Source of the DNA: Mytilus edulis
Taxonomy: Eukaryota
Direction: 5' to 3'
Length of the DNA: 64,000 nt
Assembly (NCBI RefSeq): GCF_963676685.1
Contig: NC_092357.1
Location: 28,458,001-28,522,000, forward strand
Shown: piece after piece, positions 2,206 to 59,799 of the stretch
How the letters are laid out: every line of letters begins with the position of its first letter
Position numbering within the stretch: the stretch's first letter is position 1
Program-made: the position numbers and the translations under genes
The notes under the pieces: generated by a model
Told to the model about the DNA's origin: nothing
The model's database searches: none
What the model saw: the letters and a program-made list of their open reading frames with translations, nothing else

Positions 2206-2304
2206 CTTGTCTTTCAAATTGAGATCAATACCACCGTGGATTAATAACTCGACGATATCTGTTTTATGGTTTGATGTTGAGTGGTGAAGTGCAGAGCTAC
2301 CATC
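2206..2304 (-). CDS. Ankyrin exon 11 (99 nt): DGSSALHHSTSNHKTDIVELLIHGGIDLNLKDK
   Basis: Canonical ankyrin motif; acceptor ...tctcaacag, donor gtaacc. Confidence 0.92.
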
Positions 2305-35400: not shown

Positions 35401-38400
35401 AGCATTAATTTTTGGCGTCTAGCATCACTGAAGGTTGCATATCAATAGCGGCCTAATCAAATTATGGTAAAGATGTAAAATATAGTTTGGTGTAGATATT
35501 TTGTCATTGTTTGTTCAGTTTACGTATTGATTTCAAGATGTAATCTTTATGTTCATCGCAAAGCTATAAGGGTAAATATTTCAAATAATAATACAAATTT
35601 ACAGATGTCCAAATGAATTCGATTCTAGGTTTTTTTTACGAAACACATTGCGAAATGGCAAAGTTTCAACTCTAAAGCAATTCCTATGAAAATTGAACTG
35701 TCTATATTTGCGGATGTTCAACCTATAGAAATATCAAATTTGAAACGATTCCATTTGATGCAATGATTGTTGTTTGTTTCATGTCATGAAACAGATTGAT
35801 CAACTATAATTAAGCATCCACTTACCTGTTCTTCTATATTGAAATCAGTAAGTAAATAGAAGAATTCAGATGCAGCATGGACAAGTGCAGTACTTCCTTT
35901 CTGTACATATACAAAATAATAATGTTAACACTGTTTCTAACATTTGTCTAATGATAAAAGAATAGTGAAATACATAAAAGGTTCTACAAAGGGATATACA
36001 AACTCATTTTACAAAACGACATACGATTAAAATATAGTGAACAAAACAACATAGAAGACTGTGTAATAAGAACCTCACCAAATTGCACATGTTTTTTTGG
36101 TCATGTTATTACTATTAACTCATCTTATAAACCACGGTTCACTCCAGATGCAAGCTTGGTTAACAACATACTCATCACTTATGATCCGTTATTTAAAAGT
36201 ACGAAGATAAAAGTATTGATGAAATAAAATTCAACAACACATAAAAACAAAACAAACCCCGTGATACCCAAAATTGAGTAGATCATATAACACTGCACTG
36301 TTTATTATCATCACATAGTACAGTTTTGCTGGTATGAGATATTTAGAATCTTAATCCTGTAAACGATTGTATATCAATTACGACTACAAGACAAAACATT
36401 CAGTACTTAAGATGATTTGACATGTATAAATACTGTAATATGCCAAAAAAGAAATAACCCGAAATTATGACATAGTTTTAAAAGAAATTGAAGTATATAC
36501 AAACCTTCCATACACTATGTAACTTTTTAAAAGTTTCACAGTTTTAATCATAAAACCATTTCTACCTCTAACTGTCTTTATTAACAGCAATGCGGTCTGA
36601 TGAAATAGTCATTTTCAAAATTTACAGTTGAATCAGATTCAGTAATATTAGTATATATCATGTCATGTTATGTCAAAGGCCGCGGACATATGGTTTAATA
36701 TTCTTAATTGTGATTTATCTTTCACTTACCGTATCTTGGATGTTGAGATCAATACCACCCTTAATTAGCAACTTAGTGAATTCTTTAAGCTCGTTCAATA
36801 GAGTTTTGGAAGGTACAGATCTGTCTTTCTGATAAAAGATAACAATGTTAACATAGTTTTTAACAATAAAAGAAATATGAAAAATAGAAAAGGAATATTT
36901 ATGTCGAAAACAAAATAAAACAAACAAAAATAGCTGCTGATCTGATAACACTTTGAAAGGTTAGCTTCGAATTTTTGTAATACTTTTAGCAATTTAAAAG
37001 TTTAAAATTAATTAATTTTATGGCCAAGAGGAAGATTGTGAAGTGATGCATTCATTTCCGTGAGATAAATTTCAATAATATATGACATACTAGACATTTT
37101 CTAGCATTTTATTGTGTATACTTAAATGATTTGATTTATCTACAATATACTTATATAATTATAATGTGTGAAATATGCCTGGAGGTAGTATCCTTCAATT
37201 ACACTTTCAAGTTAATTAACCGATCAAAAGAAACAGGCAAAAACTGTTCAGTCTTTATTAACAGCTAAGAAATATAAAGGTAAAAGTAAAAAAAAACCAA
37301 AGAGAACTCTCTCGGATATGTCAACAGATTATAATACTAGTATGGATTCATCAGGGATAATAAATTTAAAAAAAGACCAAGATGAAAGGAGTAATGGCTG
37401 ATTTTGGCCTCAAATTTCTAGCCTCACGGTCATAAAACCTTCGAGCATGATTTTTGTACTCAGACTCGAAAATCAACCAATCAAATTGCTGGATTTCATG
37501 TTTCGAGCATGATTTTTGTGCTTCGAGCACTGAGCAAAGTTTTATACCTTCAAGACCAGGTTCATCGAATGAAATATTCTGGAAACTTTTTCAACACTTT
37601 AGTGTCTATTTCAATTGATTCATTTCGTTTATGTGAAAGTTTTTAACTGATAAAGTCAATAAAAACGCCCTGAATCAAGCTTAACTATGAAAAATCTATC
37701 AAATATGCAAAAAAATCGTTACTTTTCAGATGTTTTCTGTCAAAAATAAAAGTGGCCGAAACCATGTTCATCCTCAACCTTTATATATGGTATGTTTTAT
37801 CATCAAATACAACTTACATTTAAATATTATGAATAACCACGAATGCGGCCACTTTCATTTAAGAGGAACACCGTCTAAAATTTAACTAAAATGCAAAAAT
37901 TGTGAAGATGTCAGTAATTTATCATGACTTAATGATAATAGTACACGATATATGTGCATTATATTGTCAAAAACAGCCAATATTCTTGAAGCAGAAGCAT
38001 TATATTTTCACAATTTTGTAAAACAGCTATATTTTGGAGCCGAAAAATGGCCCTACTGAACCTATTACTTTAGCCTCAGGGATGTTACAACAAAATATGA
38101 TCTGAATGAAGTAACAAAAGACCTTTTCAAAGCAGCTGACCTATAGAATATGGTTACTGGTATTGTGGGAAATTTTTAAGTTAATTTGAATCTATTTTAG
38201 ATAAAAAAGATGAACGAAAAATTGAATAAAATCCAAACAGAAATGCAAGAAAAGGTGGAGCCTTATCAATTGAAAATGAACATTTGAGAGAAAAGATAGA
38301 TCAAAATGAAGTCAAAACAATATCAATATATCAAATAGAAAAAAAATGTCTGAAACAACCGAAATTGCTAAAGTAACAAATATATGAAGTGATTACAATG

Positions 38401-41400
38401 AACAATACTCCAAAGAAAATATCATTAAGGTATTTAATTTTCTATGGAATGAGCAACACGATCTCCGTCAAAATTGTATACAAATGTTAAAATCTAGAAT
38501 CAAGACCATTAATCGTATGATGTTTTAATACTGGCGTAAGGAGGAGTATAATGAGAAAAAGTAAAGAACTAAGAAATAAAGTAAAATTTGTAGATAATGT
38601 TAAAAAAGACTAGAAGATGGTGGAAGCTTTGATCAAGCGTGGTATTAAAACTGGGGCATTTATGGCAGAACTGATAATGGTCTCGAAATGAAATATGGGT
38701 TGTATGATGACATCAACAAAAGACTGAGAAAAGGGAAGTAACTCTGACTTTTTAGAGTTTACGAAATAAACATCTGCTTTGTATATTTTGAAACTGCATC
38801 ATTTAAATCATTGTGTGCAGAAAACAGGAAGAATGCCTTTTGTCTTGATACTGTCTATAATTTTTTATCTTATAGTTTTATCACTTTTTCAAATTATTTT
38901 TTTTTCCCTTCATGTTTTTTTTTGTTGTTGGTTAAAAACAAGATACTTTCTCAGTACAATTAAACTATTTGATGAATATTGCTATTAATTTATTGTATTC
39001 TTCTGGACTTCACAAAAAAAAACTTTACTCATAATTGAATGGGTTCTGTAAAGATATTATCAGTTAACTGTCAAGGTCTAGGTGACATTGAAAAGATAAG
39101 CGATGTATTTAATTTTATTAAGTCTAAAAAATGCAACATCTATTGTATTCAAGATACACATTTCACGAATGAAAGTTAATTTTCATTTTTCTCCTCAAAC
39201 TTTAGAGGAGTTGCTGTAATGTTCAATAATAAATTTGAGTTAAGAGTATTAAACGAGAAGAACGATTTCAATGGTAATTATGTAGCATTATATATTGTTA
39301 CAGACAAGGATATAGTACTTCTATCATTGTACATATACGTATGGTCCTAATGCAGAGAATCCTAATTTTAACCATCTCATTATGTGTATTATAAAAGATT
39401 TTGAAAATGAAAATTTTATAATATGTGGTGATTTTAATCTTGTATTGTATCCCCCAATAGACTATTGTAATTATCTACATTTGATACATTGTAATGCTAG
39501 GGATAAAATTTTATAAAGCATAGGTTAGGAGCCTGACTGATCCTTTTAGTGAACTTTTTCCAGACTTTCGTAGATATACATGAAGGAAAAAGAAGCATTC
39601 TAAACAAGTTATGTTGGATTTATTTTTATTTTTACAGATAACATGTTAACAAATTTAGTAAATTGTACAATTGAACCTAGCTATTGCTCGGATCATTCTT
39701 TTGTGATTTTAGAGCTACAATTTAACCCATGTATAAACAATAAAGGACAGTAGAAATTCAATCATTCCTTATTAATTTTCAAAAGAAAATTGATTCATTA
39801 GAAACAAATTTAAAGAAAGAATCAATAAATCAATTAAAACATAAAAAAAAAATAGAAGTGGAGGATATAAGGAAAGACTTTATACTTCTGAGTTCTTTAA
39901 TAAAACAAAAATACAAGTAAACATATACCAAAAGTTGAAATAGAAGATGGAAGGATGAAAAACATAATCTAGAAGAGGAAATAATTATTATAGATGAGGC
40001 AGTTTCGGAGGACGCGTTTTTGAACAGACTATCGGCATTCCAATTTGAACAAATTGTGCCCCTCCCTTGCCGACTTGTTTCTTTAATATTATGAGGCTCA
40101 GTGCATACAGGAACCTCTTACGAAGAAAGATAAGAACTAAGCAATATCCTTTTACTCTATTTTCCGCTATATAGATGATGTTCTTTGACTAAATAATTCA
40201 AAATTTGGTGACTCTATCGAACGCACATATCCCATTGATCAAGAGATAAAGGATACAACAGATACAGTTAAGTCGGCCTCGTATCTTGATAAAGTAAGAA
40301 TCGATTGTACTATGACCACCTCGTGCCTCATATCCTTACTTACATCTAGAAATTTACAATGAGAGTCGATTAAAACCAAAACTTTACGACAAAAGAGAGG
40401 ATTTCAGCTTTTCAATTGTGAACTTTCCATTTCGAAGTAGCAACATTTAACAGCACCTGCATTTTATGTATACATCTCCCAATTGATACGATATTCCAGT
40501 GCTTGCATGTCCTATCATGATTTCTTGATAGAGGGTTGTTGCTCACAAGGAAGCTATTAAATTAAGAGTTCCAAATGGTGAAGTTGAAATCATCTCTTTG
40601 TAAATTTTATGGACGCCATACGCATTAGTTGACCGTTATGAAATAATCGTTTCACAAATGATATCGGATATGTGCCTTACGTCGTAACTACAATCCCCCT
40701 CCGTTTCATAAATGTAATCTACCGAATTAGACTATTTACCGGATTTGTTATCTCATAAGCAACACGACGGGTGCCACATGAAGAGCAGAATCTGCTTACC
40801 CTTCCGGAGCACCTGAGATCACCCCTAGTTTTTGGTGAGGTTCGTGTGGTTTATTCTTTAGTTTTCTTTGTTGTGTCATGTGTACTATTGTTTGCCTGTT
40901 TGTCCTATTCATTTTTAGCTTTGACGTTGTCAGTTTGTTTTCGATTTATGAGTTTGACTGTCCCTCTGGCATCTTGGGGATCCAATTCTCTTAGGCTGTT
41001 AGGAGTAAACATTGATATTGATCTTGATAAGATTTAAGACTTAAATTATACTGACAGGTATCTTCAGATAAAATCTTGAATTTAAGTGTCTTAAAGAAAC
41101 TTAACAGTTGTTGATAAAATATATGTGGCTAAAAATCTTATTCTTCCCGTACTGAATCGTTTCTTCTTTTCAACATTAAAAGACCCAAATGCTGATCATG
41201 TGTTAATGAGGAAAATTAGTGATGCTATGTGTCATTTTTTGTGGAACTCATCAGTTCATATGATTAAAAAAGAAGTGTTACTCATGGATTAAACGAATGG
41301 TGGTTTAAAGATGATTAATGTTAATCTATGTATGATAGCTTAAAAGTGTACATGGATAAAACAATTCTTTAGTTCTAACTTTAAATGGTTAAATATTTCA

Positions 41401-44400
41401 TTTACAGATATGGATAAATAAAAATTGTTCAAACTAGGTAAAAGTTACACAACAAACACTATTTAAAATGTCAAAAACCAATTTTGGATTTAAAGCATGA
41501 CAATGTTTTGCTATTAAAGATACAAATTCTACATGGAAACATTTTTTGCTAGTCCATTTTGGATGAATAAGAATATAAATAGCAACAAAAACATATAATT
41601 TATAAAAGTTGGTATTTGTATTGTTTTTGTAAATGGTGTGATTAGTAATAGTGGAAAGTTTCTCTCATATGGGGAAATAAAAGACATTTCTGGGAATATA
41701 ATGATGTATAAGAGTATCATTTCAGCATTAAATCAGACAAAAAAATCTGTTTTCAAGGGGAGCTACCTTGAATTGAGATCACAGAATATTTTATTCCCTC
41801 TTTTGTTCAAACCATTTCAAAAAGAAACTAGAGGCTCTAAAGAGCCTGTGTCGCTCACCTTGGTATATGTGAATTAAACAAAGGAAGCAGACAGTTCATG
41901 ACAAAATTGTGTTTAGGTGATTGTGATGTGTTTGTACATCTTACTTTACTGAATATTCTTGCTGCTTACAATTATCTCTATCTATAATGAGCTTGTCCGT
42001 GTAGTTTCAGTGGAAAATGTTAGTTAAAATTTACAAATTTTATGAAAATTGTTAAAAATTGATTATAAAGGACAATAACTTCTTAGGGGGTCAATTGACC
42101 ATTTTGGTCATTTTGAATTATTTTTTAGTCTTATATTGCTGTACATTATTGCTGTTTACAGTTTATCTTCTATCTATAATAATATTCAAGATAATAACCA
42201 AAAACAGCAAAATTTCCTTAAAATTACCAATTTAGGGGCAGCAACCTAACAACGAGTTGTCAGATTCATCTACAAATTTCAGGGCAGATAGATCTTGACC
42301 AGATGAACAATTTTACCCGTTGTCAGATTTGCTCTAAATGCTTTGGTTTTTGAGTTGTAACCAAAAACTGCATTTAACCTCCATGTTCTATTTTTAGCCA
42401 TGGCAGCCATCTTGGTTGGTTGGTCGGGTAAAAAAACACAATTTTTAAACTAGATACATCAATGATGATTGTGGCCAAGTTTGGATTAATTTGGCCCGGT
42501 AGTTTCAGAGAAGTAGATTTTTTGTAAAAGATCATGGAGATTTTCGAAAAAAGGTTAAAAATTGACTATAAAGTGCAATATCTTCTTGGGGGGTCAATTG
42601 ACCATTTTGGTCCTGTTGACTTATTTGTAAATCTTAGTTTGCTGAACATTATTGCTGTTTACAGTTTATCTCCATCTATAATAATATTCAAGATAATAAC
42701 CAAAAACAGTAGAATTTCCTTAAAGTTACCAATTTAGGGGCAGCAACCCAACAATGGGTTGTCTGATTGATCTAAAAATTTCAGGGCAGATAGATCTTGA
42801 CCAGATAAACAATTTAACCCCCATGTCAGATTTGCTCTAAATGCTTTGGTTTTTGAGTTAGAAGCCAAAAACTGCATTTTACCCCTATGTTCTATTTTTA
42901 GCCATGGCGGCCATCTTGGTTGGTTGGCCAGGTAACGAAACACAAATTTTAAACTAGATACATCAATGATGATTGTGGCCAAGTTTGGTTTAATTTGGTC
43001 AAGTAGTTTCAGAGGAGAAGATTTTTGTAAAAGTTAACGACGACGGACGCAGGACGACGGACGACGGACGCCGGACGCCAAGTGATGAGAAAAGCTAACT
43101 TGGCCTTTTGGCCAGGTGAGCTTAAAAGGACATAAAAGATATACATATTTGATGTTAACGGGAAGAATAAGTGTAATGTTTCTTAACACAAATATTTCTC
43201 AAGTGAGTCTATGTTCCCTATGAATATCAATATTCCAATCTTACAATTGAAATGATCAACATGTTCTGTCCTATGATAATTCATTAGTATACAAATTTCA
43301 TATGTTTCATGTACTTTTCAGTTGAAAAATGTCGACAACTGGTTTTTATTATGCGAAAAAAAAGTTTTTGAATGTGTCAAAGTAAGATGTTTATGAATTT
43401 TTGACATTGGCGCTACTGGCTTTATTTATTACTCTGAGATAAAAAACAAAATCTTCGTTTTTTTAAAATGACATATGTAAAGTATCATTCCTTCGAACAT
43501 CTAACTGGCAACAACACGGGTGTGTTGACCGTAATGGAATATTTAGTTGACATATTCAGTGGATCTTTCGAAATTGCTGTAATAACAATCCCGTCTCTTT
43601 TTCGGTATCGTGAACTATAAATTAATATATGTTCTACAAAAGTAAAGACATTAATAAAATATTCTCTAGTGCTAGCAACATCAGCTGACATGAATGTTTA
43701 TGATAATAAGAACAAAATGTTATTCGTACTGGTTTCCGTAGACACAAAAGCCTTAAAAACTAGCTGGTAAGAGCCGATTAATCATTTCAATTGTAAGATT
43801 GATATTCATAGGGAACATAGACTCACTTGAGAAATATTTGTGTTAAGAAACATTACACTTATTCTTCCCATTAACATCAAATATGTATATCTTTTATGTC
43901 CTTTTTAGCTCACCTGGCCAAAAGGCCAAGTTAGCTTTTCTCATCACTTGGCGTCCGGCGTCCGTCGTCATACCTAATGCCCAAAATTTTTAAGATCTTC
44001 ATGACTTATCTATAAACTTTATTTTCAAACTTATTTTCGTAAAAATCACTCAATATAGACCAGTTTTGCTCAAAATGTATAAGTTTTGTTTTTATCAATA
44101 GAACTTGCATTTCTTTTCTTTATTAGCTGTATTTGGCAATATTTTTGGAATTTTGGTCCTCAATGCTCTTCAATTTCGTACTTTATTTGGCCTTTTTATC
44201 TTTTTTGGATACGAGCGTCACTGAGGAGTCTTTTGTAGACAAAATGCGCGTCTGGCGAAACTGGCGAAACTAACGGAGCCACTGTTAGTTACAAGTCTCG
44301 TAAACATTATTCCGTAATATGGAAAGCTCATGTGTACTTCATTTAAAGTCAAAATACAAGGCTGAGTTTCACATTTTTAACATGAATCTGGCTCAAACTT

Positions 44401-47400: not shown

Positions 47401-50400
47401 GCTAGATTAAAACTGACGTAGAAAGGTAACACATGGCCACCGAAAGCTTTACTTTTGAAGCCCATGTGGTCGTGTGGTCTAGCGGGACGACTGCAGTGCA
47501 GGCGATTTGGTGTCACGATATCACAGTAGCATGGGTTCGAATCCCGCCGAGGGAAGAACCAAAAATTTGCGAAAGCAAATTTACAGATCTAACATTGTTG
47601 GGTTGATGTTTAGAAGAGTTATATATACATCTATATATATGACTTTTCGTTCTGATTCGAAATTTGTATTGCACTTTACCCTTTTTTGTTTTTTATTAGT
47701 ATGATTATTATCACTGGTTGTGATATATGGGTGTTTACGGAAGAAGAATGGCCTTATAAATGACAAACAAAGTATATAAAATAGAAACATGAGAAACAAA
47801 CGACAACTACTGGATTTCAGGCTCCTGGCTTACAACAGGCACACACATACATAATGTGGCAAATTTAAACATGTTATCAGGATCACAATCCTCTCCTTAA
47901 CCTAGGACAGTAGTTTTACATAACAACAAAATAAAAAAATACTGAGACCAGTTGAAAAATGCTTAAGATATATACGAAAATAAATACATCTTCAAAATCA
48001 CAGGTTGCACTGTCCGGGTACTTGGACACCCTTACAACAAAGCGACACTTAATACAGATCTGGTATTTGAAAGCTAAAACAAATATAAAATATCAATTAG
48101 TACATTTTACTATCAAATGAATTTAGAGTAAAAACGTCATAAACAGTCAGAGAAGAACATGACCTTGGGTAATGTCAAGACACATATTACAGATCAATGA
48201 CAGTGCAACACTTTCTGTATATGATTCCTCTTAATAAGAGCCCAATAATGTGAGGCTTGTAAATTTGAGTAATATTATTTTTTGTTCTTTCCTGATCCCG
48301 GATTCGACCTAATGCTACTGAGATATCATGGCACCAAATCACCTTGCACTGTGCCTGATGCACTAGACCATTTAACCACCAAACCTCTACAATAATAAAA
48401 CTTTCGGGATAACTGTCCTCGTCAGTTTTAATATAGCCTCATATCACAGCACATGATATATCAGACATGAAAATGGAATTGTTATAGATCAGCTGAAATA
48501 TCTATTATACAGTATCGTACAAACTAATGAAAGATGCGGTTTAAGAAATAGTTATATTATAAATATGTCTGAAGCAGTCACGGCTCTACAAAACATATTA
48601 TCAACTAATGGGGAAAAAAATCATAACAGTGTGTTTTGTTAAATTTATATATCAAATCACATTCTGCATCGGTTATTAAAAGCACTTTTTTAATATATCT
48701 ATATGTGTATTCAAGATTATTGGGAATATTTTTTTTCTCTTTATAGTCACTAAACCCAATAGTATATTGTTGTTGGGTGTTTTTATCAAGTCAAAACCCC
48801 ATAAGTAGAATGTAACACTTGAATGTGCTTTTTGTGACAGCAGCATAGCAAATAACAAGCTAAAGATACAATATACAAATGTAAAAAAAAGCAGATTTGA
48901 GAAACAGAAGATTAAAAAAAACAAACTGAGAAAAATCTGAAACTGAAAAATTAATCTGTAAGGGTATGCTTTTATTTTTACAACGGCCTTTAAAATTTGT
49001 AAAATAACATATACTCTGCTTTAAAGATATTCAAAAACAAAGATTTTAGCAGACATTTCTATAAAACTTTAAGTGAATTTATATATCAAACTGATTCTTC
49101 ATGCATATAAATTTTGCATATCTGACTTTTTGTTAGCCTTCTAGGTCATATATTAGCCAAAGTGTGTTAGATATATACTTAAATATTATATTAATGTAAC
49201 AAAACTTCCAAACTAACAATTTAAAGAAAACATTGTGAACTTGTATAGATAAACAGTATTACAGTAGTAGGGTGTGACCTGGAAACTATGGAGGCATTTA
49301 ATTCGTGAATGTTGGAATGATTGACTACTCCACATTAATAGTATTCTGTAATGTTTCACATTGTTACCAGCATGGTTTCTAGAGACTTCATGTAAAAAAA
49401 ACATTCACGAATTGATAGTCGACAATAAATAAAGACTTCTGATTTAATAATACTGCTATGAGTTAAAAGTGTTTTTTACACATTTACCTTTAAAAAATAT
49501 GTATATATCGGTTTCACTTTTTACACTTTTCAAAAACTACGCCTCTTTCATTGGATATGTTAAATTTGTAGACATTGTGTTTCGTTGACGTATTGGTTTC
49601 CTGATATCACCTCTATCTTTTACCTCATAGAGACATAAAATTAGACTATAAATGCATTTGAAAAACGGTAAAGTTGAATCTTTATGAATATCCAGAACGA
49701 TCCGAGTAGTACAATGTAGTTAAAAAATAAAGTAAGTCTATAAACTCTTCTAAAAAATTAAAATCACAAAAGACAGAACTAAGTTTGAGGCACTAAAATG
49801 TTTAAATTATGAGGCACTAAAATGTTCAAATTATGAGGCACTAAAATGTTCAAATCATGAGGCACTAAAATGTTCAAATTATGAGGCACAGTCCTATACC
49901 TTGACTTTTGAAAAACATTATATTGTAGATGAAATGTCCATTTTCTCAGTTCAACGAAACTTCATAGTAATATATAGTTGACATAGTAAAAATACTTCCC
50001 GTGACAATTGTCTACATTTAAAAAAGTGCGATCTAAAGAAATATTCATTGTCAAAATTTGAAATTCAAACTTAACCACGAAAAAGGATAATTGTACATAT
50101 GAACTCTCAATCATAAGCTTTTTAAATATAAAACCGGTTAAAATAGCATTGCCAATAATTAAAAAGGTACAAAATGGAGAGAAATTTCAAAATTCACATT
50201 AAATTCAGTTATATTGATATTTTTTGTGTCATATTGAAGCTTGAATTTTGAAGTTAGATTTATTATCCACTTACCTTGTTTTTTTCATTGATATCAAAAA
50301 CCAACTTCGCAAATTCAAATGCAGCGTGGTGAAGCGAAGTACAACCTTTCTGTACAGATAAAATATTACAATTTCAACATGATTCAGTAATTAATGAAAA

Positions 50401-53400
50401 GAATATGTAAGATTAGTTAGTGATATTCAAAGCAATTTGTCGAAAATAAACTGTCGAAAATGTCATGGCAAAAATGAAAAAAAAAAACGACGACGCCGCA
50501 GAACCCTGATTTAACCTTAGAACATATGTAATTTCATGAGTTATCGCATAACGGTCAACAAAATATCTGAATTGTGCATGAACTTTTTGAATGGATGATA
50601 ACTGAATGTGACACATATTCTTTTCCTCATGGTAGTACTATTAACTTATCAATCTATATTTTACTCCAGATGCAAGCTTGGTTCACAATCGACTCATCAC
50701 TGATGATCACTTTAATCAAAAGTACGAAGTTAAATGGTACGGAAGAGTCAATATTCAAAAAGGTCCAAACTCACTGATATATTGAAAATAAAGATGTCAT
50801 CTTTGAGAGAATGTAACTGAGAATACAACCATTGCAACTAATCTGTTGTCACTCTGTCCACAACGTACAAAACAACTCGTGATTTCGTGTGTAAAATGTT
50901 CGAAGAGATTTCAAAGGAATTCATATATGTTATCATAGGAGAAAAACAATAACGAATACTACAATGAGTAACAAATCAACCCGGTAGCCAATATCAAAGT
51001 TTATTAACAGCTTCGTATTAGCACATACTACAATTTTGTGAGTGGGTATATTTCGAATTATAATTTTGTTATTTGTATCTTACAATCTATAAAGGTTTTT
51101 TTGGGAGAGGGAGTGCATAATTTTAGTATATTTATGAACGTTCAGAAGTTTGGGGCATATGACACATACAAATACAAATTATTCTTACTAATCCCATTGC
51201 CCGTAAAAGAGCAGAATAATGACAAATCAATTACGACTACCATACAAAACATACAATACTGAACTTGATTTGATATGAATAATTATAATAAGCTTTAATG
51301 TTAGACCAAGCTTTGAAAAAAGAGGCACATTACACATTTTCTATACAATATGTAACATTGTGCACAAATCATTGTAAAATGTCACACAGTGTTAATCCTT
51401 CTAAAATCTCTAATTACAGCAATGCGATCTGAACATATATTCATTTTCTAAACTTATAGTTTATTTAGTTAAGGAAGTTTGCTTGTCATGTTATGGGATT
51501 TTGGTCAGATTTACGGAATTCTCTGTTTTTTTTCCATTTGAAAGCCTTAAAAAAATGCCCTTTGACCCTACTTATCATTTTACAAATCTTTTACATGTAT
51601 TATGATAAGTTATCTGATAAAGCTTTGAAAAGACAAAAGAGAGTATTTTCCCGCCAAAATTGAAATATGCACATTGACCTATATATATATATATATATAT
51701 ATATTTTGTTGCTCATTTTGGTTCCTTTATTAATCCCCTATCAACATAAACTAGTGATTTAAAAAAATAATTATTTGGAAACTGAGAAGCGAACTCCCTC
51801 AAACAAGATTATGTACCGTCATGTCAGAGACTGACATAGGATTAAACTTACCCTATCTTGAATGTTGAGATCAATACCACCCTCAATAAGCAACTTGGTG
51901 AATTCTCTAAGCTCTTTCAATGCAGTGGTATATGGTGCAGTACTATCTTTCTGTATATATACACAATAACAATGTTTAAATAGTTTTCATTTATAAACGA
52001 AATTTGAAAGATAACAAATGGATATGTATGTCGAAATAAATTAACAAAAAAAAATACAAAGTGCAGATCACACAACATGGAAATAAAGGACTAAAAAACA
52101 AGTATCCCGCTAATTCCCGGTGATGTCACATGTTTCTGAGTAGATCCATCTCCACATGTAGAACATGTAAGTAAAATAAAATAATTACATATCACATGAT
52201 TCAATTTTAGTATGCCAGACGCGAATTTCACACACAAAAGACTCTTTATAAATGATCCAATCAAAAATATATACAAAGGTCAAAGAAATAAATATATAAA
52301 ATGCAAGAAAGACTTAAAAAGTTATAAAATATGTGATTGAACATGAGTATACACTTGTATGGTGTTATCATACACGCATGATACGACCGTATGTGTATGT
52401 TCATGGTAATTGACACGTTTACTTTGAATACGTAACTCTTTATAAGGTATGACCCTGTTAGTTGTCACATCATTTAAAAGACGCTACTTAAGAAATAACT
52501 AGATTAACTAAATTCACGCTGTTAATTTTACTCACTAGTCAAAGCTGTAGTAAATACATTTGATAACAATGGTCATTACCAATTTGTTATCACGAGTAAA
52601 TGGTTACATATGAACCTCGAAAAACATCTTCCAAAATATTTAAATGAACTTTTACACAACAAATCAACTCGTTTACTATCTGATGAAAAAGCGTTCAATT
52701 TGAGAGCAAAGGGTGTTTATACAAAAGATCGTGCACAACCAAAACGCTTAAGTCACTTGTGAAAGTAAATGTCACCCTAAGAATACAATCAACAATACAA
52801 CTAGGGATACAACCAACCCGTGGCACCAACAGTCAATGTTTTTGTATCATTTAAATTGTAAATTGTACATTTTGCTTAACCATCATTAGGTGTTTTTTTT
52901 AGATACAGTTTATTGTTATACATGTAGTAATGCAAAGTTTACATACTGAATATCTAGAAAAATACCTGTATGTTCGAAATACTTATATGGCCTAGTATAT
53001 CTGGAAAATATTATCAACTAACAAAACAAAAATACAGTCCTTGGTCGGTGTAAACTTCTCACTAACACACCATTACACCATTTACCATACACCCTTTCAT
53101 CATAAACCTTGTGCCATTACACCATACACGTTACACCTTTGCACCATACACTTTACACATTAAACCATACACCATTCCCCTTCTTTCTACACGATCCAAA
53201 ATTACCGATTATGCAAATAAATTTAGAAGAAAGCGTGCGACTACAAAAATACGTTTATTTTTTTGTTTTAAAAAACGAATTTTGATCACAATATTGTAAA
53301 TTCATGAATAAAATTCAGACCTTCATGAGCATGGTTATATAAACAATACAGATAAAACATATACACATATATTTGTAAATAAAAATAAGTCCATGATCTG

Positions 53401-56400
53401 CCTTTTTGAAAAAACGATATATTAAGTACTGATCATGTTTAAAGTGTAGCGTAAATCTTTCGAACTTTGTTTTCAGATAAATCGATTAACAATGCAAAAA
53501 ACTAATGGTTGTTGATTATATAAAATAACAACAACAGTACCAAGCTATTGAATGTAATACTGGTGTACATGGTGTACAGTTAACCAGTCAAGTCGAACTC
53601 GGAAACTCGAGTACAAGTATACTCGGTTTTGCGAGATAACGATCCCGTCATGCAATAATTTGTCATGTTTATGGCCAGTGTAGTATAATTAATATTTCTT
53701 TTTTCCTGCCCAAGTCAACAGTGCAAACATGAATGTCCTTTTTTTCAAACAACTGAGTCATCAACAGAAATCAGTTGTTTGCATATCTCAGACTGGCTCC
53801 AATATAACATGTTTTATTGTCTCAGGAAAAAATTATCTAAACGCAACAACCAAATCTGAGCATATTTTAATATGTAAATAGGAGTTTTTTACAATCCGAA
53901 AGATTAAAATAAAATGAACTTCGGTTTCATCCAGTGCAATATCGTACACCATTCATTCATATAATTCGTTACACTATCACACAATTCCTCATACACCAAT
54001 ATATCATTTCTTTTACCCCACACACCATATCAACATACACATGATACACATTCTACCATTGCATTATACACCATACACCATTACACCATACACTTTAGTT
54101 TTGAAAGTTTACACCACCAAAGGGCTGTAACAGTAAGTTTCGTTGTATTTAGCTATCAAATCAGCATATATTCACATTATGAATAGGTCATGAAAAACAA
54201 AGTTTTTTTTTTAATATCGACATTTGCCGTCACGACTAATGAAAAGTGCATACAAATGTATGTTTACTCTTTCCAGTAATCGAAACCAATAGATTCTTGA
54301 TTGAAAGTGTTTTTTTTTTATTATAGAAAACCCAGCAGCAAAAAGTTACACATTAATCATATGGCAAAAATCAAGGGTATATTTTCAGATGATTTGAACC
54401 ACGTGACTTTAGCCCTTTTGAATAAATTACTTCCCTTAGTGTAGAAATGAATATACTATTAACTTCCTCTAGCGGATAAATCCAAAAATGTTGTGTAATT
54501 CTAAGCGAAAATGCTGAAAAAATGGCTTTTCACGAAATGGTGAGGTTGAATACGTCATGTTTAAAAAAAACTTGGCAGAAAACGAAGAAATGCATGTACA
54601 TTTGTGTAAGTTGAAAAATATTTTAAATTTAGAATTCAACCTACAAGGTGTTTCCCTGTATGCGAACAAATCATGTACAATATCTTGAAGATATCATGAT
54701 TTCTATTTTGAACCTTGCTTTTCCACGATTCTGTACGATCGTTCGCTATTGAACATAGCAATAAAACAACGGTTTCACTTTCTTCACTTTCTAAAAACTA
54801 CGCCTCTTTTATTGAATACTAGTATTCATAGATAATTCGTTTCGTTTACGTACTGGTTTCTTAAAAGTTTCCTGTCTTTTCCCACACAGAGACTTAAATT
54901 TATCATATAAAGGCATATAAAAAGCAGTAAAAATGTATTCCAATGAATATCAAAAATAAATGGAGAGGCTACAATGTGGATCAACATTAAAGTGAGTTTT
55001 TAAAATCAAATTAGTTTGAGGTACTTAAATGTTTAACTTATGACGCACATTCCTACTTATAGACAAATCATGCATCTAAGACTAAATTATCAATCCGGAC
55101 ACATCCAACAGGCAATGGATTTAGTGTAAAGAATTCATAAACAGACAGAGAAAAAAATAACCTAGTGCAATGCCAAGATACAGGTATCGACATATTGTAG
55201 ATACATGAATGTGTATAAATGTATATAACATACAAGAAATATTTAGTTTGCTTTAAATTTACTGATAAAAAAATCAATGTTTATACCCAAAAAATCAACG
55301 ATATCATTACAGTCTAATGAGAAACATTTGTGGCATTTTTTAGGGATAATAAATTGCCAATAATTACAGAAGAGCAAACTGTTAAGATGGGCAATTTCAA
55401 AATTCATATTTAATACAGTTATATTGGAATTTGTTGTGTCACGTTAAAGCTTGATTGATTATTATTTTAAGTTTGCATTTTGATTTATTATCCACTTACC
55501 TTGTCTTTTATATTGATTTCAAAAAGCAACTTTGTAAATTCAAATGCAGCGTGGTGAAGTGCAGTACAACCTTTCTGTACAGATAAAATATTACAATGTT
55601 TATATGATACAGTAACTAATTGAAAAAAAGGTGCAAGATTTAACAGAAATGTCTTATTAGTGGAGTGACCAAGCAAACAATTTTTTCAACTTTAATGGAA
55701 CACCCTACCTGCAAGCTAAACTATGACTTTTTGGAAAGAAAAAAAGTTTATTCTTTAAATTTTGCGTGGTCGTAGAATTGAAATATGGTGCAAGTCTTTT
55801 TAAAATGAATCAAAGGTTAGTGATTGAGTTTTTTTCACTATTGTCAATTTATTTCATCAGAGGTTATAAAAAGTCTCGAAAAAATATTAATAAAATGTTA
55901 CTAAACAAGAAATTCATAATGAAATAAACTGTGACATTTCATTTTCAAATTAAATTTGAAAATAATGAAACCACCAAATGCATATTTCATAAAATTCAGA
56001 CTAGCAACAAAATAGGAGATGGACCATTCGAATCTCAATTAATTTTTTACATCGCATGTACTTGTAAAGGTATATTTCTGAATTTTACGGCATTTATAAA
56101 AAGAAACGAAGTCAATTTGGTTTTTGTGATGTATATGTATTACCAGTCACAAACATTTCACAAGGCAATTAAATAAAATGAGTTTAATGATGGACTAAAG
56201 TTTCAGCGCATATTCTAACTCTAGGATTTTTTAGGTATGGTTTTATGTGCCTTTTCCTTACAAAATCACATATGGATCGCTTAGACAGATTGGTGGCATG
56301 GGGTATTTTAACAAATAAAGGGCATGACAACTTTCGAAAACCTGACATCAGTTATCGTTTTCATCGTCGTATACTTCCGATATTGCTCGGTGAGTTAAAT

Positions 56401-59400
56401 GATTTCTAAAACCATCAGACCCTTCGCATGAACAAATATTGCTATACGCGGATTGCTGTTGGTTGCATACACAGTTGTTGTTGCAAGCTATTTTCCCTTG
56501 ACGTATACGTACAAACAACAAGGTCTTGAAGAAAATCTACTGACATAGGTCCTTCAAAGAAAACCGAGAGCAAACGTGTTTACCCTCTTACCAACACGAG
56601 TCTTTGGAAAGTATGAGTTTATCGAAATTGCGTTTGAAGCATTGCACATGGGATGTGCTGTAAAAATGTGTTTTCACATGGAGGAATTTTCACAAGACTG
56701 GCATCCATTGTGGCGACAAACTCTATCCTTAGTTTGTTTGGATCATCATAATCATACCTGAACTTTCCCTACGGATCATACAATGAGGCGATAGATGCAC
56801 ATGCAATGTTTACTGCTATTCTTTATCACCCGTTTAAAAACTTATCGGATTTGGCACAACGTTTTCGAATTTATGTCCTTAATGCTGTTCAACTTTATAC
56901 TTGTTTGGCTTTATAACTAATATGATCTGAGTGTCCCTGATGAATGAGTCTTATGAAGACGTACGCGCGTCTGGCGTATCAAGTTATAAGCCTGACACTT
57001 TTGTTAGATATCATCATTACTTGGAAGACTGAAAAGAGAGCAAATTGTCATTCAAGGAGATGAATTATATCATATTTTTCAACATTTTCACATTGTACCA
57101 TCATCATGAAACAGAGCGGAAGGTATTGGACCAAAGGATATGCCAATATCCTGACTACAGTCTCATTCTCATGAACATTTGTAAGAACTAAAGCATGACG
57201 AACTATTTTTACTGGGTTTATATGTGCCTAACCACAGTCACCTGATTAACCCTTGGGTTTGGAGGTCTTGGTTTCATCGAAAGTATTGAGAGTAGACCTG
57301 GACATAGGACTGTAGAAAACATGCGTTTCAGACTCATTAGTGCAGCCTTCCACAAAAGATTTAACCATCTGGTTGCGATGTTCAAGAGATTTAAGAAAGC
57401 ACGCATGAACATTTATTGAGGCTTTAATTTGCGAGAAATACTAGAATTTATCAATGGCTAAGGATGATCGGCAACGTTGAATTTGTAGGTTATATTTGAA
57501 TGCATATACCCTATCAAATCAGAGACATTCTTCCTGTCACGTGTTATTGTCATTGTCGTTGGCTAGTTTTCTTTGTGTTCAATATCTGCATCTGTGACTA
57601 ATCTCGATCTTGATCTCATTTCAGAACTATAATCCGCAAGGATGTGTCTTGAAAGCATCTATCGAAGTACAGTGTTTGTTCCCTTGTCAGTCATATGATG
57701 CCTCTACAACCTTTAGAATCTTTAATAATAGTTTTCTCTGTAGCCATATAACTTCAGATCCTATTTAAGGGTTCATGTTTATGAAAACTCACATGACATA
57801 AAGACAGATTTTACTGTTTCAGACAGATTCAACATATTTAAATATGTAGGCTGGTATCCACCTAGCATAGTTCGTCCGATTGGCAACAATATTTCAAATG
57901 CACGAAGAAACATATCCCAAAATGCGAAGGTTGGTGATAGTTTACAAGAGTGTATTTTGAATTCTTCAAACAATGGCAACATATGTTCTACGGGTGCCAC
58001 ATGTAGAGCAGGATCTGCTCACTCTTCCGGACCACATGAGATCACCCCTATTTTTTGGTGGGGTTCGTGTTGTTAAACTATTAGTTTTCTATGTTGTGTC
58101 ATTTGTACTATTGTTTGTCTGTTTTTCTTTTTCATTTTTAGCCATGGCGTTGTCAGTTTGTTTTTGATTTATGAGTTTGACTGTCCCTTTGGTATCTTTC
58201 TTCTCTCTTCTAATTATCATAAAAAAAACTGTGCAATACCTTCAGCGCTTTTGTGTGTTTTAGCTAATGAACTGTGATATACATTTGGTTCAATATTAAT
58301 TAACGATGTTCGTCTTAACACCAATAGAAAAATTAAACAAAAGAGCCATGAGATATAGCCTCATATGCCAATGTTCATCATCGAAGACGTCTAGAATAGA
58401 CCATTTTACACCATACAATTAGTTGTCAAATGTTTTCACATCATATTGTTGACCAGCACGTTTTGACATATCTAAACATCGTTTCACAGTTGTAAATACT
58501 ATTGCAATGTCGAGGCATGGCATCTATAACCGGAGCATAGGCTACAAACGAAATTTCTGATTTTGCCTTTTGTAAAAACCGGGCCAAAATGGAACAATAT
58601 GTTCAGTGCTTTCTGCAGGAAATGAAATCGAATCAAAGTTATGTCTCGAAAGAAGTCGCAGAATTACCAAGGACAGGACAGATAAATCTCGATTTTCGAT
58701 GAAAAAGACAGAATCTTCCCATCAACATTAGAATAACAAGGCGGTCCATACCGTTCTGTTGGATTGTCGAAATGTAACATGCTATACGATTGGTATTCGA
58801 ATCATTCAGCTTCAGAAATCTTTCTAGTCCCCGTTTAACATTTATGGAACTTATGTGGGCGTTTGATGATTCGTTTTGATATAGAATTTCAACTCTAGCA
58901 AGTAAGTGAAATGCATTTGTACCATCGGCATTTTTGTTAATATTTTCTGCTCCCTCATGTAAAGTACGACCACCTATTATAAATACAGCAATAACATTAG
59001 GTACATAGGACATGTCTTAGATTCTGTCTATTTTAAAATTTGATGAAGTTGTTTGATATCTACGTACTTCAGAAAAGAATGCACAAAAACCATGAAAACA
59101 ATTAGAGCCTAACTGATGGTGTAATTGTAATACCAAAGCAAGATGAATGGAGTTATCAGGTTTATGTTAAAAGCTAGTATGAATTCTGTTATTGCCGGGA
59201 CTTTTTGCATTTTGTCGACAGGAAGTTTAGAAACGTAACTTCAATCTTTCAATGAGCATCAGAATAACGAGGAGGTCCTGTCCTTTTCATTGAACTCTAA
59301 TGCAAGTTAAAAATCCTCATCATTGATAATTTGTAAAAATACTGATTTGGAATGGCTTCGAAACTTTACAAAGAGAAGTTTAAATCATTTTGTTTTCGGA

Positions 59401-59799
59401 AAATCATGAGATTATCAAAGTTATCTAAATTACAAATGTTGTATCCACTTAGTTAAAAACTTAGTTAAAATTTCGCTAAACTAAATGAAAATTGACAAAA
59501 ATTGGAAAAAAATAAAAAAAATCCTTGTTTTACATTATGAATAAACAATTAAACTGTGTATAAATGCAAATTCGTATGTCAAAAGACACATGTAACTTTT
59601 TTCGCAACTTCATAGTTTTAACCATTAAAGTCATTTTACCAGTTCGTTAGAATAATTGTCTTTATTTGAATCATACCGCAATTATCTATCATCAACTTAC
59701 CCTATCTTGAATGTTGAGATCAATACCACCCTTAATTAGCATCGTGGTGAATTCTCTAAGCTCTTTAAATTTGATGCTTGGATGTACAGCTCCATCTTT
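2206..59799 (-). CDS. Partial multi-exon ankyrin-repeat protein gene: join of 59701-59799, 55500-55574, 51852-51950, 50275-50349, 36730-36828, 35826-35900, 34610-34708, 32495-32593, 20764-20862, 7729-7827, 2206-2304 (1017 nt, 339 aa); 5' and 3' ends not seen
   Basis: Eleven mutually homologous minus-strand segments, each bounded by an AG acceptor and a GTAA donor, all multiples of 3, open in phase 0. They translate to ankyrin-like units (GxTALHxAA...LL..GG.DLN..D). Joining them into one transcript is inference. Confidence 0.85.
2944..3083 (+). ncRNA. Retrozyme fragment with type I hammerhead ribozyme motif (2995-3040), mutated in stems III and I
   Basis: GCGTCA-CTGATGA-GTC-TTTTGTA-GAC-GAAA-GACGCGTC-TTGCGT: intact CUGAUGA and GAAA core plus stem II. 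The other copies read GCGCGTC-TGGCG after the GAAA position. Confidence 0.85.
3085..4953 (-). mobile_element. Diverged inverted copy of the composite element at 9488-10949
   Basis: 3085-3997 is reverse-complementary to about 10127-10890, and 4790-4953 to about 9505-9672, with blocks in the same order. Confidence 0.8.
5644..6428. mobile_element. MITE with G/C-run subterminal repeats and TTA TSD (PIF/Harbinger-type), with an internal insertion
   Basis: TTA|GGGGACAACCATTTGATATTCT-G(n) ... C(n)-AGAATATCAAATGGTCGTCCCC|TTA. Confidence 0.8.
7729..7827 (-). CDS. Ankyrin exon 10 (99 nt): NDLTALHTATRSEHTQMVRMLIQRGCYLNDQDK
   Basis: Canonical ankyrin motif; acceptor ...ctcattttag, donor gtaaac. Confidence 0.92.
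8396..8452. repeat. (TA)n microsatellite; others at about 1868-1894, 8607-8629 and 51680-51703
   Basis: Directly visible. Confidence 0.98.
8628..9345 (-). mobile_element. tRNA-derived (SINE-like) repeat, about 1.5 tandem units of about 455 bp plus a short inverted terminal piece
   Basis: Reverse complement has A-box TGGTCRTGTGG-TCTAG and B-box GGTTCGAATCC. Units start at about 8628 and 9084; inverted piece at 9293-9345; flanked by (TA)n. Confidence 0.75.
9488..10949. mobile_element. PIF/Harbinger-type non-autonomous element with TAA TSD, carrying nested MITEs (about 9840-10118 and 10465-10737)
   Basis: TAA|GGCCGTGTTCACA ... TGTGAACACAGCC|TAA. Confidence 0.8.
11070..12293 (-). mobile_element. 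Harbinger-derived non-autonomous DNA transposon with an N-terminal transposase remnant
   Basis: TIR CCCCAGTCGCATTAGACCACGATCGCACTACG / CGTAGTGCGATTGTGGCCTAGTGGGACTGGGG. Minus strand about 11453-11560 reads PWLAAERRLLFCHYDQLMTEL*IEDEPSFFNFSRMP, resembling Harbinger transposase N-termini (family call from recall). Confidence 0.7.
12367..16029. mobile_element. TIR-bounded DNA element of about 3.7 kb containing a BEL/Pao fragment and degenerate internal repeats
   Basis: Perfect 23-bp inverted termini ACCAAGCATTACATGTAGACGGG (12373) / CCCGTCTACATGTAATGCTTGGT (ends 16023), with weaker inverted similarity extending about 200 bp inward. Confidence 0.8.
12780..14270 (+). mobile_element. Degenerate, internally deleted BEL/Pao LTR retrotransposon pol (RT and integrase fragments)
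   Basis: WYLPLFGVYQSKKPDQIRGVFD at about 12964-13029; integrase core TRAYHIELIEEISSS...RRFADLRG...SNRGTHFIGA in ORF 13521..13766; many stops and frameshifts. Confidence 0.85.
16720..20185 (+). mobile_element. Degenerate Academ-like DNA transposon with long (several hundred bp) TIRs
   Basis: About 16755-17250 is inverted relative to about 19690-20160. Interior encodes PRNWQNFLKDDDNNKELSSF, RTVDTDVV...LWFAFGIGKNFRYLSIH (XPG-like region) and a C-terminal Cys-rich finger at about 19340-19435. Starts with TAG. Superfamily call from recall. Confidence 0.65.
20345..20607 (+). repeat. Abundant interspersed repeat (aagatgtggt...gccaatgagacaact...); related copies at 44925-45750, 47750-48200, 55050-55300 and 28980-29180 (-)
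   Basis: Mutually alignable copies within the window; family not assigned. Confidence 0.75.
20764..20862 (-). CDS. Ankyrin exon 9 (99 nt): NGSTALHQAAFKKLTEFANLLIVGGIKLNIKDR
   Basis: Canonical ankyrin motif; acceptor ...tctttgcag, donor gtaagt. Confidence 0.92.
21077..21458 (+). ncRNA. Second-family retrozyme monomer (360-bp period) with a degenerate hammerhead (about 21376-21429)
   Basis: 22-nt terminal direct repeat attggtaacg(g/t)taatgttatta at 21077 and 21437. Hammerhead-like GCATCA-CCAAAGA-GAC...GTC-GAAA-TTGCATC-TGGTG with the CUGA core mutated. Confidence 0.7.
21789..22580. mobile_element. Helentron/HINE-like element (inner copy)
   Basis: aaactagaggctctaaagagcctgtgtcgctcacc ... agctcacttggcccttcgggcccggtgagctaaaaa; inserted in an A-run of the outer copy. 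Confidence 0.8.
23230..23666 (+). mobile_element. Non-autonomous Helitron
   Basis: A|TC 5' end; imperfect subterminal hairpin cccgcgatatcacgag then CTAG|T 3' end; no TSD. Confidence 0.7.
26348..26510 (+). mobile_element. Penelope-like element fragment (RT to GIY-YIG linker)
   Basis: FITQYHANTGNLQTVMRNDWHFIQDNPQFTNLF...TIAFKRNRN in ORF 26263..26496 resembles the PLE linker (TYHP...W..L...IAFRR.KNL). Confidence 0.65.
26960..28040. repeat. Satellite-like array of about 195-bp units (about 5 copies) followed by an inverted unit
   Basis: Motif tattgatcttactgaatcc..ggtc..tgtagtttggtgtattgctgtcaaa at about 26983, 27178, 27368, 27574 and 27766; reverse-complement copy at about 27858-28040. Confidence 0.85.
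28085..28362. repeat. Degenerate array of about 10-bp units (ggtcgagact)
   Basis: Repeated gtcgagac / gtcaagac / ttaagac units. Confidence 0.75.
28487..29882. mobile_element. MITE-like element with GGCCACA(C/A)CAATTT termini and nested insertions
   Basis: taa|GGCCACAACAATTTGATTCCTT ... AAGAAATTAAATTGGTGTGGCC|caa. Confidence 0.6.
30926..31418. repeat. Recent tandem duplication of about 245 bp (30926-31170 and 31171-31418)
   Basis: Near-identical adjacent copies with a few substitutions and one 3-nt indel. Confidence 0.95.
31398..31757 (-). ncRNA. Near full-length retrozyme monomer with the hammerhead 3' half deleted
   Basis: Reverse complement matches the 2944-3083 and 44120-44257 family (gagcgtcactgatgagtctttt), but the GAC-GAAA...GTC segment is missing. 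Short terminal redundancy (gactaa..tagt.ta) at both ends. Confidence 0.8.
32495..32593 (-). CDS. Ankyrin exon 8 (99 nt): NGNTAIHYAALKELKEFAMLLIKGGIDLNIQDR
   Basis: Near-canonical 33-aa ankyrin repeat; acceptor ...ctatacag, donor gtaagt. Confidence 0.92.
34610..34708 (-). CDS. Ankyrin-like exon 7 (99 nt): KEKFSLHEVAPKEFTEFAKLLVDGGINLNIQDR
   Basis: Acceptor ...tctgtacag, donor gtaagt; open in phase 0. Confidence 0.85.
35826..35900 (-). CDS. Short ankyrin-like exon 6 (75 nt): KGSTALVHAASEFFYLLTDFNIEEQ
   Basis: Acceptor ...atgtacag, donor gtaagt; same 25-codon length as exons 2 and 4. Confidence 0.8.
36730..36828 (-). CDS. Ankyrin-like exon 5 (99 nt): KDRSVPSKTLLNELKEFTKLLIKGGIDLNIQDT
   Basis: Acceptor ...ttttatcag, donor gtaagt; lies inside ORF 36715..36951. 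Confidence 0.85.
37386..38070. mobile_element. Probable non-autonomous DNA element with a nested short MITE (about 37425-37560)
   Basis: Imperfect inverted ends (agtaa...attttggcctcaaa / ttggagccgaaaaat...ttact); inner piece ggtcataaaac ... gttttatacc. Confidence 0.45.
39039..39950 (+). mobile_element. Degenerate L1/Tx1-clade LINE ORF2, APE endonuclease domain (possible ORF1 remnants upstream from about 38100)
   Basis: MGSVKILSVNCQGLGD...IYCIQDTHF, RGVAVMFNN, YGPN, ICGDFNLVL and SDHS motifs in order, with stops and frameshifts. Confidence 0.85.
40001..40975 (+). mobile_element. 5'-truncated Penelope-like retroelement: RT C-terminal half plus 3' tail
   Basis: FGGRVFEQTIGIP, TNCAP, FRYIDDVL (40162-40185), YPI...KDTT, KLYDKR, ISQLIRYS; tail gggtgccacatg...cttacccttccggagcacctgagatcaccc. 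Confidence 0.85.
40985..41824 (+). mobile_element. Continuation of the L1/Tx1-like ORF2 (post-RT region); may resume after 43127
   Basis: RLLGVNI, FLWN and GGLKMIN...KVTWIK motifs, degenerate. Confidence 0.7.
41825..43127. mobile_element. Helentron/HINE-like element with two internal tandem units of about 500 bp
   Basis: Same ends as 21789-22580; internal units start at about 42055 and 42558. Confidence 0.85.
43060..44877. repeat. Two abutting inverted-repeat pairs: A 43060-43256 / A' 43781-43969 and B 43968-44086 / B' 44759-44877
   Basis: Near-perfect reverse-complement matches read directly. Confidence 0.92.
44120..44257 (+). ncRNA. Retrozyme fragment with hammerhead motif (44213-44257) carrying a G12A core mutation
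   Basis: GCGTCA-CTGAGGA-GTC-TTTTGTA-GAC-AAAA-TGCGCGTC-TGGCG. Confidence 0.8.
47377..47640 (+). mobile_element. tRNA(Leu)-like SINE-type repeat; other copies at 46248-46380 (+) and 48255-48600 (-)
   Basis: GCCCATG-TGGTCGTGTGG-TCTAGCG...GGGTTCGAATCCC (47460-47545); acceptor stem does not pair as in a real tRNA. Confidence 0.75.
49787..49889 (+). repeat. 24-bp tandem repeat, about 4.3 copies (gaggcactaaaatgttcaaattat)
   Basis: Directly visible; single-copy in the paralogous module at about 55018-55048. Confidence 0.93.
50275..50349 (-). CDS. Short ankyrin-like exon 4 (75 nt): KGCTSLHHAAFEFAKLVFDINEKNK
   Basis: Acceptor ...tctgtacag, donor gtaagt; paralog of 55500-55574. Confidence 0.85.
51852..51950 (-). 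CDS. Ankyrin-like exon 3 (99 nt): KDSTAPYTTALKELREFTKLLIEGGIDLNIQDR
   Basis: Acceptor ...tatacag, donor gtaagt; open in phase 0. Confidence 0.85.
53035..54127. mobile_element. TIR element with TA TSD and (ACACCAT)n-like subterminal repeats
   Basis: TA|CAGTCCTTGGTCGGTGTAAACTT ... AAGTTTACACCACCAAAGGGCTG|TA. Confidence 0.75.
55500..55574 (-). CDS. Short ankyrin-like exon 2 (75 nt): KGCTALHHAAFEFTKLLFEINIKDK
   Basis: Acceptor ...tctgtacag, donor gtaagt; lies inside ORF 55488..55676; GxTALHxAA motif. Confidence 0.85.
56850..57004 (+). ncRNA. Degenerate retrozyme/hammerhead fragment
   Basis: GTGTCC-CTGATGAATGA-GTC-TTATGAA-GAC-GTA-CGCGCGTC-TGGCGT; core has an insertion and GAAA is lost. Confidence 0.7.
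57990..58203 (+). mobile_element. Solo Penelope-like 3' tail (same family as 40765-40975); related pieces at about 7180-7425 (+), 32700-32875 (-) and 62690-62935 (-)
   Basis: Aligns directly to 40765-40975. Confidence 0.85.
59701..59799 (-). CDS. Ankyrin-like exon 1 (99 nt): KDGAVHPSIKFKELREFTTMLIKGGIDLNIQDR
   Basis: Acceptor ...tgcacag, donor gtaagt; open; C-half nearly identical to the other 99-nt exons. Confidence 0.8.

Follow-up and report, generated by a model that had tools for sequence, protein, structure and literature searches.

Four tandem pairs of exons in Mytilus edulis, each consisting of a short exon of 75 nt followed by a long exon of 99 nt on the minus strand, probably specify a single composite ankyrin repeat each, in which a variable insert of 25 residues separates the two helices. 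In such a repeat helix 1 would come from the short exon, helix 2 and the loop from the long exon, and the insert would project from the repeat stack. The evidence base is one gene in one genome and consists of short alignments. If this reading is correct, the array would be a clean and datable case of a repeat protein gaining a long insert. No foreign sequence would be involved: two repeats would have fused and released their inner halves, and the mark of selection can still be made out in each half.

A tandem array of paired exons

The exon series was read in transcription order over 264 kb, comprising the window (the 64,000-nucleotide stretch of DNA analysed here) and 100 kb on each side. 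It starts with an 87-nt N-cap exon and an ordinary 99-nt ankyrin exon, C0, and continues as S1-L1-S2-L2-S3-L3-S4-L4, where S and L denote short and long exons. After L4 come 14 ordinary 99-nt exons, four of them inside the window, a last repeat of 41 residues, Roc, COR and two C-terminal exons. The gene carries one ankyrin repeat per phase-0 exon. The features are as follows, with positions given in the window unless stated.

L005:3648-3722, 3.6 kb past the window end: S1, short exon (75 nt), partner of L1
59701..59799, minus strand: L1, long exon (99 nt) with an eroded helix-1 half, retaining helix 2 and the loop
55500..55574, minus strand: S2, short exon (75 nt), helix 1 kept, two 12-nt deletions
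51852..51950, minus strand: L2, long exon (99 nt), partner of S2
50275..50349, minus strand: S3, short exon (75 nt)
36730..36828, minus strand: L3, long exon (99 nt), partner of S3
35826..35900, minus strand: S4, short exon (75 nt), the most diverged
34610..34708, minus strand: L4, eroded long exon (99 nt), partner of S4
32495..32593, minus strand: C1, ordinary ankyrin exon (99 nt), nearest intact relative of L1-L3, above the Pfam Ank cut-off
20764..20862, minus strand: C2, ordinary ankyrin exon (99 nt), nearest intact relative of the helix-1 half of the short exons
7729..7827, minus strand: C3, ordinary ankyrin exon (99 nt)
2206..2304, minus strand: C4, ordinary ankyrin exon (99 nt)
Below the window start (L015-L020): ten more 99-nt exons, the 41-residue last repeat, Roc, COR and two C-terminal exons
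55353..55640: S2 and its intron flanks, duplicated together as one block; counterparts at 50148-50414 (78%) and around S1 (76%)
54770..55007: intron patch downstream of S2, duplicated along with it; counterpart at 49509-49747, downstream of S3 (72%)
50612..51461: intron between L2 and S3, sharing three patches (79-83%) with the intron between L3 and S4 at 36086-36629

All eight S and L exons have AG/GT ends, lie in phase 0 and contain no stop. The donor is GTAAGT in seven of the eight, and splice-site strength looks like that of the ordinary exons. The original prediction had described six of these exons, of 99/75/99/75/99/75 nt, as a triplicated unit of 33 + 25 residues. Each of the six was found where it had been placed, on the minus strand, with AG/GT ends, in phase 0 and open. 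The array nevertheless has four pairs rather than three, as S1 lies beyond the window and L4 (34708-34610) below the start of the interval first described, and with these two added the unit reads 25 and then 33 residues in the direction of transcription. The intron flanks had also been thought to be co-duplicated; they do match, at 72-83%, in patches and not as continuous stretches. The three patches shared by the L3-to-S4 and L2-to-S3 introns pair 36086-36211 with 50612-50734 (79%), 36373-36432 with 51226-51285 (83%) and 36575-36629 with 51407-51461 (80%).

An nhmmer scan of the 264 kb revealed no decayed extra exon copy. A search of the mussel's own genome for short-exon copies found none beyond the array locus, at a low sensitivity at which the S2 and S4 queries missed each other. 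The exon trees are poorly resolved as to the order of duplication, and L4 may have eroded independently. The introns contain further sequence of a different kind. The 13.4-kb intron between S3 and L3 holds decayed retroelement-like sequence and interspersed repeats (39020-41500 and 41800-44100), among them two tandem copies of about 500 bp (42037-43033, 89%) and two copies in inverted orientation (43060-43259 and 43778-43969, 94.5%). In the L1-S2 intron, coding-like sequence at 56200-59300 is broken by stops, with longest open stretches of 110-125 residues, and is probably a decayed transposon.

Complementary retention of ankyrin motifs

Ankyrin positions are numbered here after the standard consensus. 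DNA alignment places two 12-nt deletions, common to all four short exons, at positions 12-15 and 22-25, in agreement with the two in-frame four-codon deletions noticed originally. The motif GxT(A/S)LxxAA, also expected in the 75-nt exons, is present in 4/4. Their long partners lack TALHxAA and retain helix 2 and GGI(D/N)LNIQD, again as described before. Over five helix-1 core positions of our own choosing, the short exons keep 5, 5, 4 and 4 residues and the long partners 1, 2, 2 and 2. Ordinary exons, 15 from the array gene and 30 from distinct control proteins, keep 4-5 without exception. These control proteins stem from 24 loci retrieved by an L2 query, and the choice among them was made on a helix-2 motif, so that they were not selected for helix 1. 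Erosion of helix 1 is thus confined to exons that follow a short exon (4/4 vs 0/45), and all four long exons carry a proline inside helix 1, at positions 6, 6, 7 and 11. Across helix 2, the Gly cap and the DxN loop the long exons keep 7-8 of 8 core residues, while positions 22-25 are absent from the short exons.

A profile HMM of ordinary exons divides the pairs in the same way. The short exons match only from model position 1 or 2 to 10 or 12, and the long exons only from 13, 15 or 16 to 32 or 33, so that 4/4 pairs are parsed as complementary halves; ordinary exons match end to end. The model was trained on 43 ordinary exons, including C0, C3 and C4, with C1, C2 and all S and L exons left out. 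No single S or L exon reaches the Pfam Ank cut-off, which the ordinary exon C1 passes; S1, S2 and L4 give weak matches (E 0.015-0.065) and the other five none. Something of the ankyrin pattern persists in the second half of the short exons, where F17 and N29 are kept in 4/4 and the score on the ankyrin profile, 9-30 bits, falls within the range of ordinary exons (6-62). The hydrophobic moment of short-exon residues 11-18 has a phase of 98-175 degrees, compared with 134 for the helix-1 face. This fits an extended helix, yet it may be inherited and we do not count it as support.

The short unit was also sought in other proteins. A word-index protein search gave nine matches among 2253 candidates, all of them ordinary ankyrins sharing the helix-1 motif, and HMMER against 1.84 billion representatives gave 12, made up of five ankyrin proteins with ordinary or longer spacings and seven unrelated repeat proteins. 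The ESM Atlas returned no usable match to the short unit, and a metagenome scan yielded one locus of 325 stretches, an ordinary repeat. With the long exons as queries, 2 of 714 candidates matched, both ordinary Mytilus ankyrins. A sequence search of the PDB returned ordinary ankyrins and DARPins only, among the best 60 of 351. These searches revealed no database protein with the 25-residue unit.

Selection along the paired exons

Using codon-model code that we wrote for the four 58-codon units, we obtained a dN/dS of 0.30-0.32 for the frame (short codons 1-11 and long codons 12-33) and of 1.55-1.64 for the 25-codon insert. Two ratios fitted better than one on all three topologies (p about 1e-9), and the frame lay below 1 (p 0.001); the insert as a whole was not significantly above 1 (p 0.11-0.16). 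In a scan of the 34 possible 25-codon windows the fastest begins at codon 12, which is where the insert has to start if a repeat of 33 residues is to be restored. Permuting sites reached the codon-12 window in 1/2000 cases and the best free window in 2/500. When window length was free, codons 28-36 scored 37.4, compared with 36.8 for codons 12-36 and 39.6 for the best window, codons 14-36. Since codons 28-36 alone score about as well as 12-36, the first half of the long exon carries most of the contrast.

We also fitted a ten-exon tree in five ways (GY-type rates on each of two trees, MG-type rates by themselves, and MG-type rates with intron flanks at a tied or a free rate), and tested four of the fits against 1. 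The segments are 11-22 codons long, with boundaries first suggested by the amino-acid pattern, and the codon models have no gene-conversion term. For short codons 1-11 dN/dS was 0.23-0.35 (p 0.014, 0.003, 0.003 and 2.5e-5), where the neutral rate is borrowed from other segments or from introns. The rest of the short exon gave 0.88-1.5, not different from 1 (p 0.75-0.98). Long codons 1-11 gave 2.0-4.2 (p 0.005, 0.005, 0.0002 and 0.006), and the rest of the long exon 0.22-0.49, a constraint that was not significant in three of the four fits (p 0.077, 0.076 and 0.175) and reached 1e-6 only with introns. The long half of the insert is under positive selection in the codon models. The short half drifts at about 1, retains a few hydrophobic residues and may extend helix 1. 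At helix-1 core codons pN/pS is 1.96 in the long exons vs 0.21 in control exons, whose codons 1-11 as a whole give 1.35, driven by surface positions (2.5). The composite repeat with an insert of about 25 residues, as originally proposed, gains support from the segment-wise ratios, the window scan with its permutations and the HMM parse.

Alternative explanations

It is doubtful that each exon forms a unit of its own, with a shortened repeat of 25 residues and then one of 33 residues whose helix 1 has decayed, giving a distorted or partly unfolded stretch. Such short repeats have precedent, since solved ankyrin repeats span 24-48 residues and their deletions cluster at the end of helix 1, according to a structural survey (PMC4687027). 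The short exons keep 5-6 of the 6 remaining helix-2 and loop core residues, and Pfam aligns S2 residues 1-18 to profile positions 1-22 across the first deletion (E 0.015). This arrangement, however, depends on the helix 1 of the long exons, which carries proline in 4/4 and evolves at a dN/dS of 2-4, and on the second half of the short exons, which evolves at about 1, so that neither of the halves it needs shows measurable constraint.

The short exons could also be skipped or decaying relics and the long exons plain eroded repeats, which we regard as unlikely. Here the constraint limited to codons 1-11 falls on ankyrin consensus residues, and helix 1 has eroded only after a short exon, in 4/4 cases vs 0/45. 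In simulated neutral drift, splice dinucleotides and open frames survived in all four short exons in 0/3000 runs, or in 19/3000 with branches shortened to 0.66, although the A+T-rich model may overstate loss; in the array both are intact in 4/4. What speaks for relics is the pooled dN/dS of whole short exons, 0.81, the lack of short exons in any protein record, and the example of Ectocarpus NB-ARC-TPR genes, in which truncated 34-residue TPR-like exons are described as evolving near neutrally (PMC3341825).

A splicing repertoire, in which any short exon joins any downstream long exon or pairs are skipped, would give isoforms that differ in their inserts and in repeat number. All exons are in phase 0 and multiples of three, so every skip would stay in frame, and brown algal ROCO genes splice their LRR exons alternatively (PMC11378527). 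This scheme is compatible with the composite fold; it seems quite improbable, as the splice sites of S and L exons look as strong as ordinary ones (GTAAGT in 7/8) and no mutually exclusive arrangement was seen. Finally, gene conversion homogenising parts of neighbouring exons might mimic the half-and-half pattern, given that L1, L2, L3 and C1 show just 4-7 differences over the 66 bases of codons 12-33, against 18-36% in their acceptor flanks, but this is most improbable: an overall rate of its own for the insert adds only lnL 0.1-0.5 and leaves the frame dN/dS at 0.35, the pattern persists with introns as neutral clock, and the restriction of helix-1 core loss to exons that follow a short one would have no explanation in conversion.

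A candidate ankyrin-Roc-COR gene

On the strand of the array, the downstream exons match Pfam Roc at 32.7 bits (cut-off 27) and COR-A at 46.6 bits (cut-off 35.3), and the P-loop GEQDTGKT is intact in Roc. The ankyrin exons and Roc-COR lie on one strand and are colinear with the paralogues P0053 and P0040 over about 129 kb, with a few small linking exons placed roughly. As these two proteins share the domain order, we join the ankyrin exons to Roc and COR in what would be a single ankyrin-Roc-COR (ROCO) gene, an addition to the original prediction. The two last large exons gave no match to Pfam Death; PF00531 occurs only in distant relatives (about 32% in COR), from which these exons may be death-like.

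A search with the COR exon found 93 relatives, all under the name Mytilus except for a single Mercenaria entry, and identity is 70-78% for the best of them. The best match, P0018, is 78% identical and a possible orthologue, although its model has no ankyrins; the COR search gave no close orthologue and none was found for the ankyrin part. Genome G000 contains at least 150 COR-like exons, as 150/150 of those scored, out of 269 candidates, match the COR query, and the next-best copy is 76% identical to that of the array gene. The COR-like exons of G000 lie mainly on C14, C12, C7, C6 and C11, and about 40 of them, mostly clustered on C14, are 68-76% identical to that of the array gene.

Other Mytilus ankyrin-Roc-COR proteins (such as P0053, P0040 and P0011) have an N-cap, ankyrins, Roc, COR and C-terminal helical domains in the order seen in the array gene, and the COR of such paralogues is 70-78% identical to its own. 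In contrast to the array gene, none of the 102 proteins examined has a motif spacing of 25 or 58 residues, and the 31 distinct exons taken from other ankyrin clusters all measure 99 nt and have an intact helix 1. Clusters in which 99-nt exons have duplicated recently were found at L034-L057 (G000:C14:1.7-4.7 Mb, C8 and C1932). In these, surface positions 1, 3, 8, 10 and 11 have a pN/pS of about 2.5 vs 0.21 at the helix-1 core, which suggests diversifying selection across the family.

ROCO domains also occur among Aplysia immune candidates (PMC9334734). The literature searched, with subscription journals outside its coverage, held no title on Mytilus ankyrin-ROCO genes or on a mussel ROCO expansion. 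The data point to a large, apparently little-studied mussel ankyrin-ROCO family whose repeat exons duplicate and diversify like those of brown algal candidate immune receptors.

Comparison with known systems

The site of the putative insert is one that tolerates insertion. Inserts there occur in solved structures, and the array gene's own last ankyrin exon, which encodes 41 residues and lies in L017 some 24.1 kb below the start of the window, is also lengthened between the helices, by about 7 residues relative to its paralogues. According to PMC4687027, ankyrin insertions fall mainly at two common sites, one being the hairpin and the other the stretch from helix 1 to helix 2, and in solved complexes an excess of binding residues lies in this inter-helix stretch. 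IkBzeta carries 28 residues between helices 1 and 2 of ANK4, and IkBNS carries 20 in its ANK4 (PMC3009747), the same site as in the mussel pairs and similar to their 25 residues. The mussel architecture is therefore not new, and the original description of a non-canonical ankyrin architecture was overstated. Unlike the IkB inserts described there, which occur once per protein, the mussel insert occurs four times in tandem, spans an intron and varies fast, and it would consist of the discarded halves of two ancestral repeats. The origin by fusion of two repeats and the tandem, diversifying form appear new; our literature search, which did not extend to subscription journals, gave no report of an ankyrin repeat rebuilt from two half-repeats.

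Brown algal LRR-ROCO genes offer a second comparison. PMC11378527 and PMC3341825 describe a single LRR in each exon, along with shuffling, alternative splicing and positive selection, and the mussel gene shares with these genes the Roc-COR core, the repeat-per-exon layout, exon duplication, a large family and positive selection on the repeats. Of the features of such candidate immune receptors, one repeat per in-phase exon, tandem exon duplication and positive selection are all found here. The difference is that the algal genes, as described there, swap whole LRR repeats, whereas the mussel gene is animal, is built of ankyrins and would have a two-exon repeat with an insert.

LoopDARPins likewise combine an ankyrin scaffold with a long variable binding loop, as in our reading of the mussel pairs, but they are engineered, and their loop replaces the beta-turn between repeats and not the inter-helix turn.

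Possible origin and function of the composite repeat

The composite repeat could have begun with one ordinary exon that lost its inter-helix turn (12-15) and helix-2 cap (22-25) through two in-frame deletions. A short exon lacking both could no longer form its own hairpin, and its helix 1 would then have paired with helix 2 of the next exon. This pairing would have freed the second half of the short exon and the first half of the long exon (14 + 11 residues). The pair would then have been duplicated in tandem, and the freed stretch would have diversified, partly under positive selection.

The insert may have a role in partner recognition, as its site, the selection acting on it and the gene family would suggest. 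It would equip a candidate recognition protein with a new variable surface for binding, and the Roc-COR module of that protein would relay the signal. A bolder version, which we put forward only tentatively, is that two repeats collapse into one by complementary loss and the 25 residues left over fold into a long helical hairpin whose tip is hypervariable; four in a row would then be the positively selected recognition loops of a mussel ROCO receptor, an antibody-like surface possibly recombined by splicing.

Two smaller observations concern the 99-nt exons. In L2 (51852-51950) and C1 (32495-32593) a 6-nt direct repeat, its copies 12 nt apart, brackets the stretch at positions 22-25 that the short exons have lost, and slippage between the copies would account for this deletion. 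In the ordinary exons nearest the array, C1 (32495-32593) and C2 (20764-20862), the Gly normally found at position 13 is missing and the turn is rich in K/E and favours a helix, and a turn of this type may have eased the fusion.
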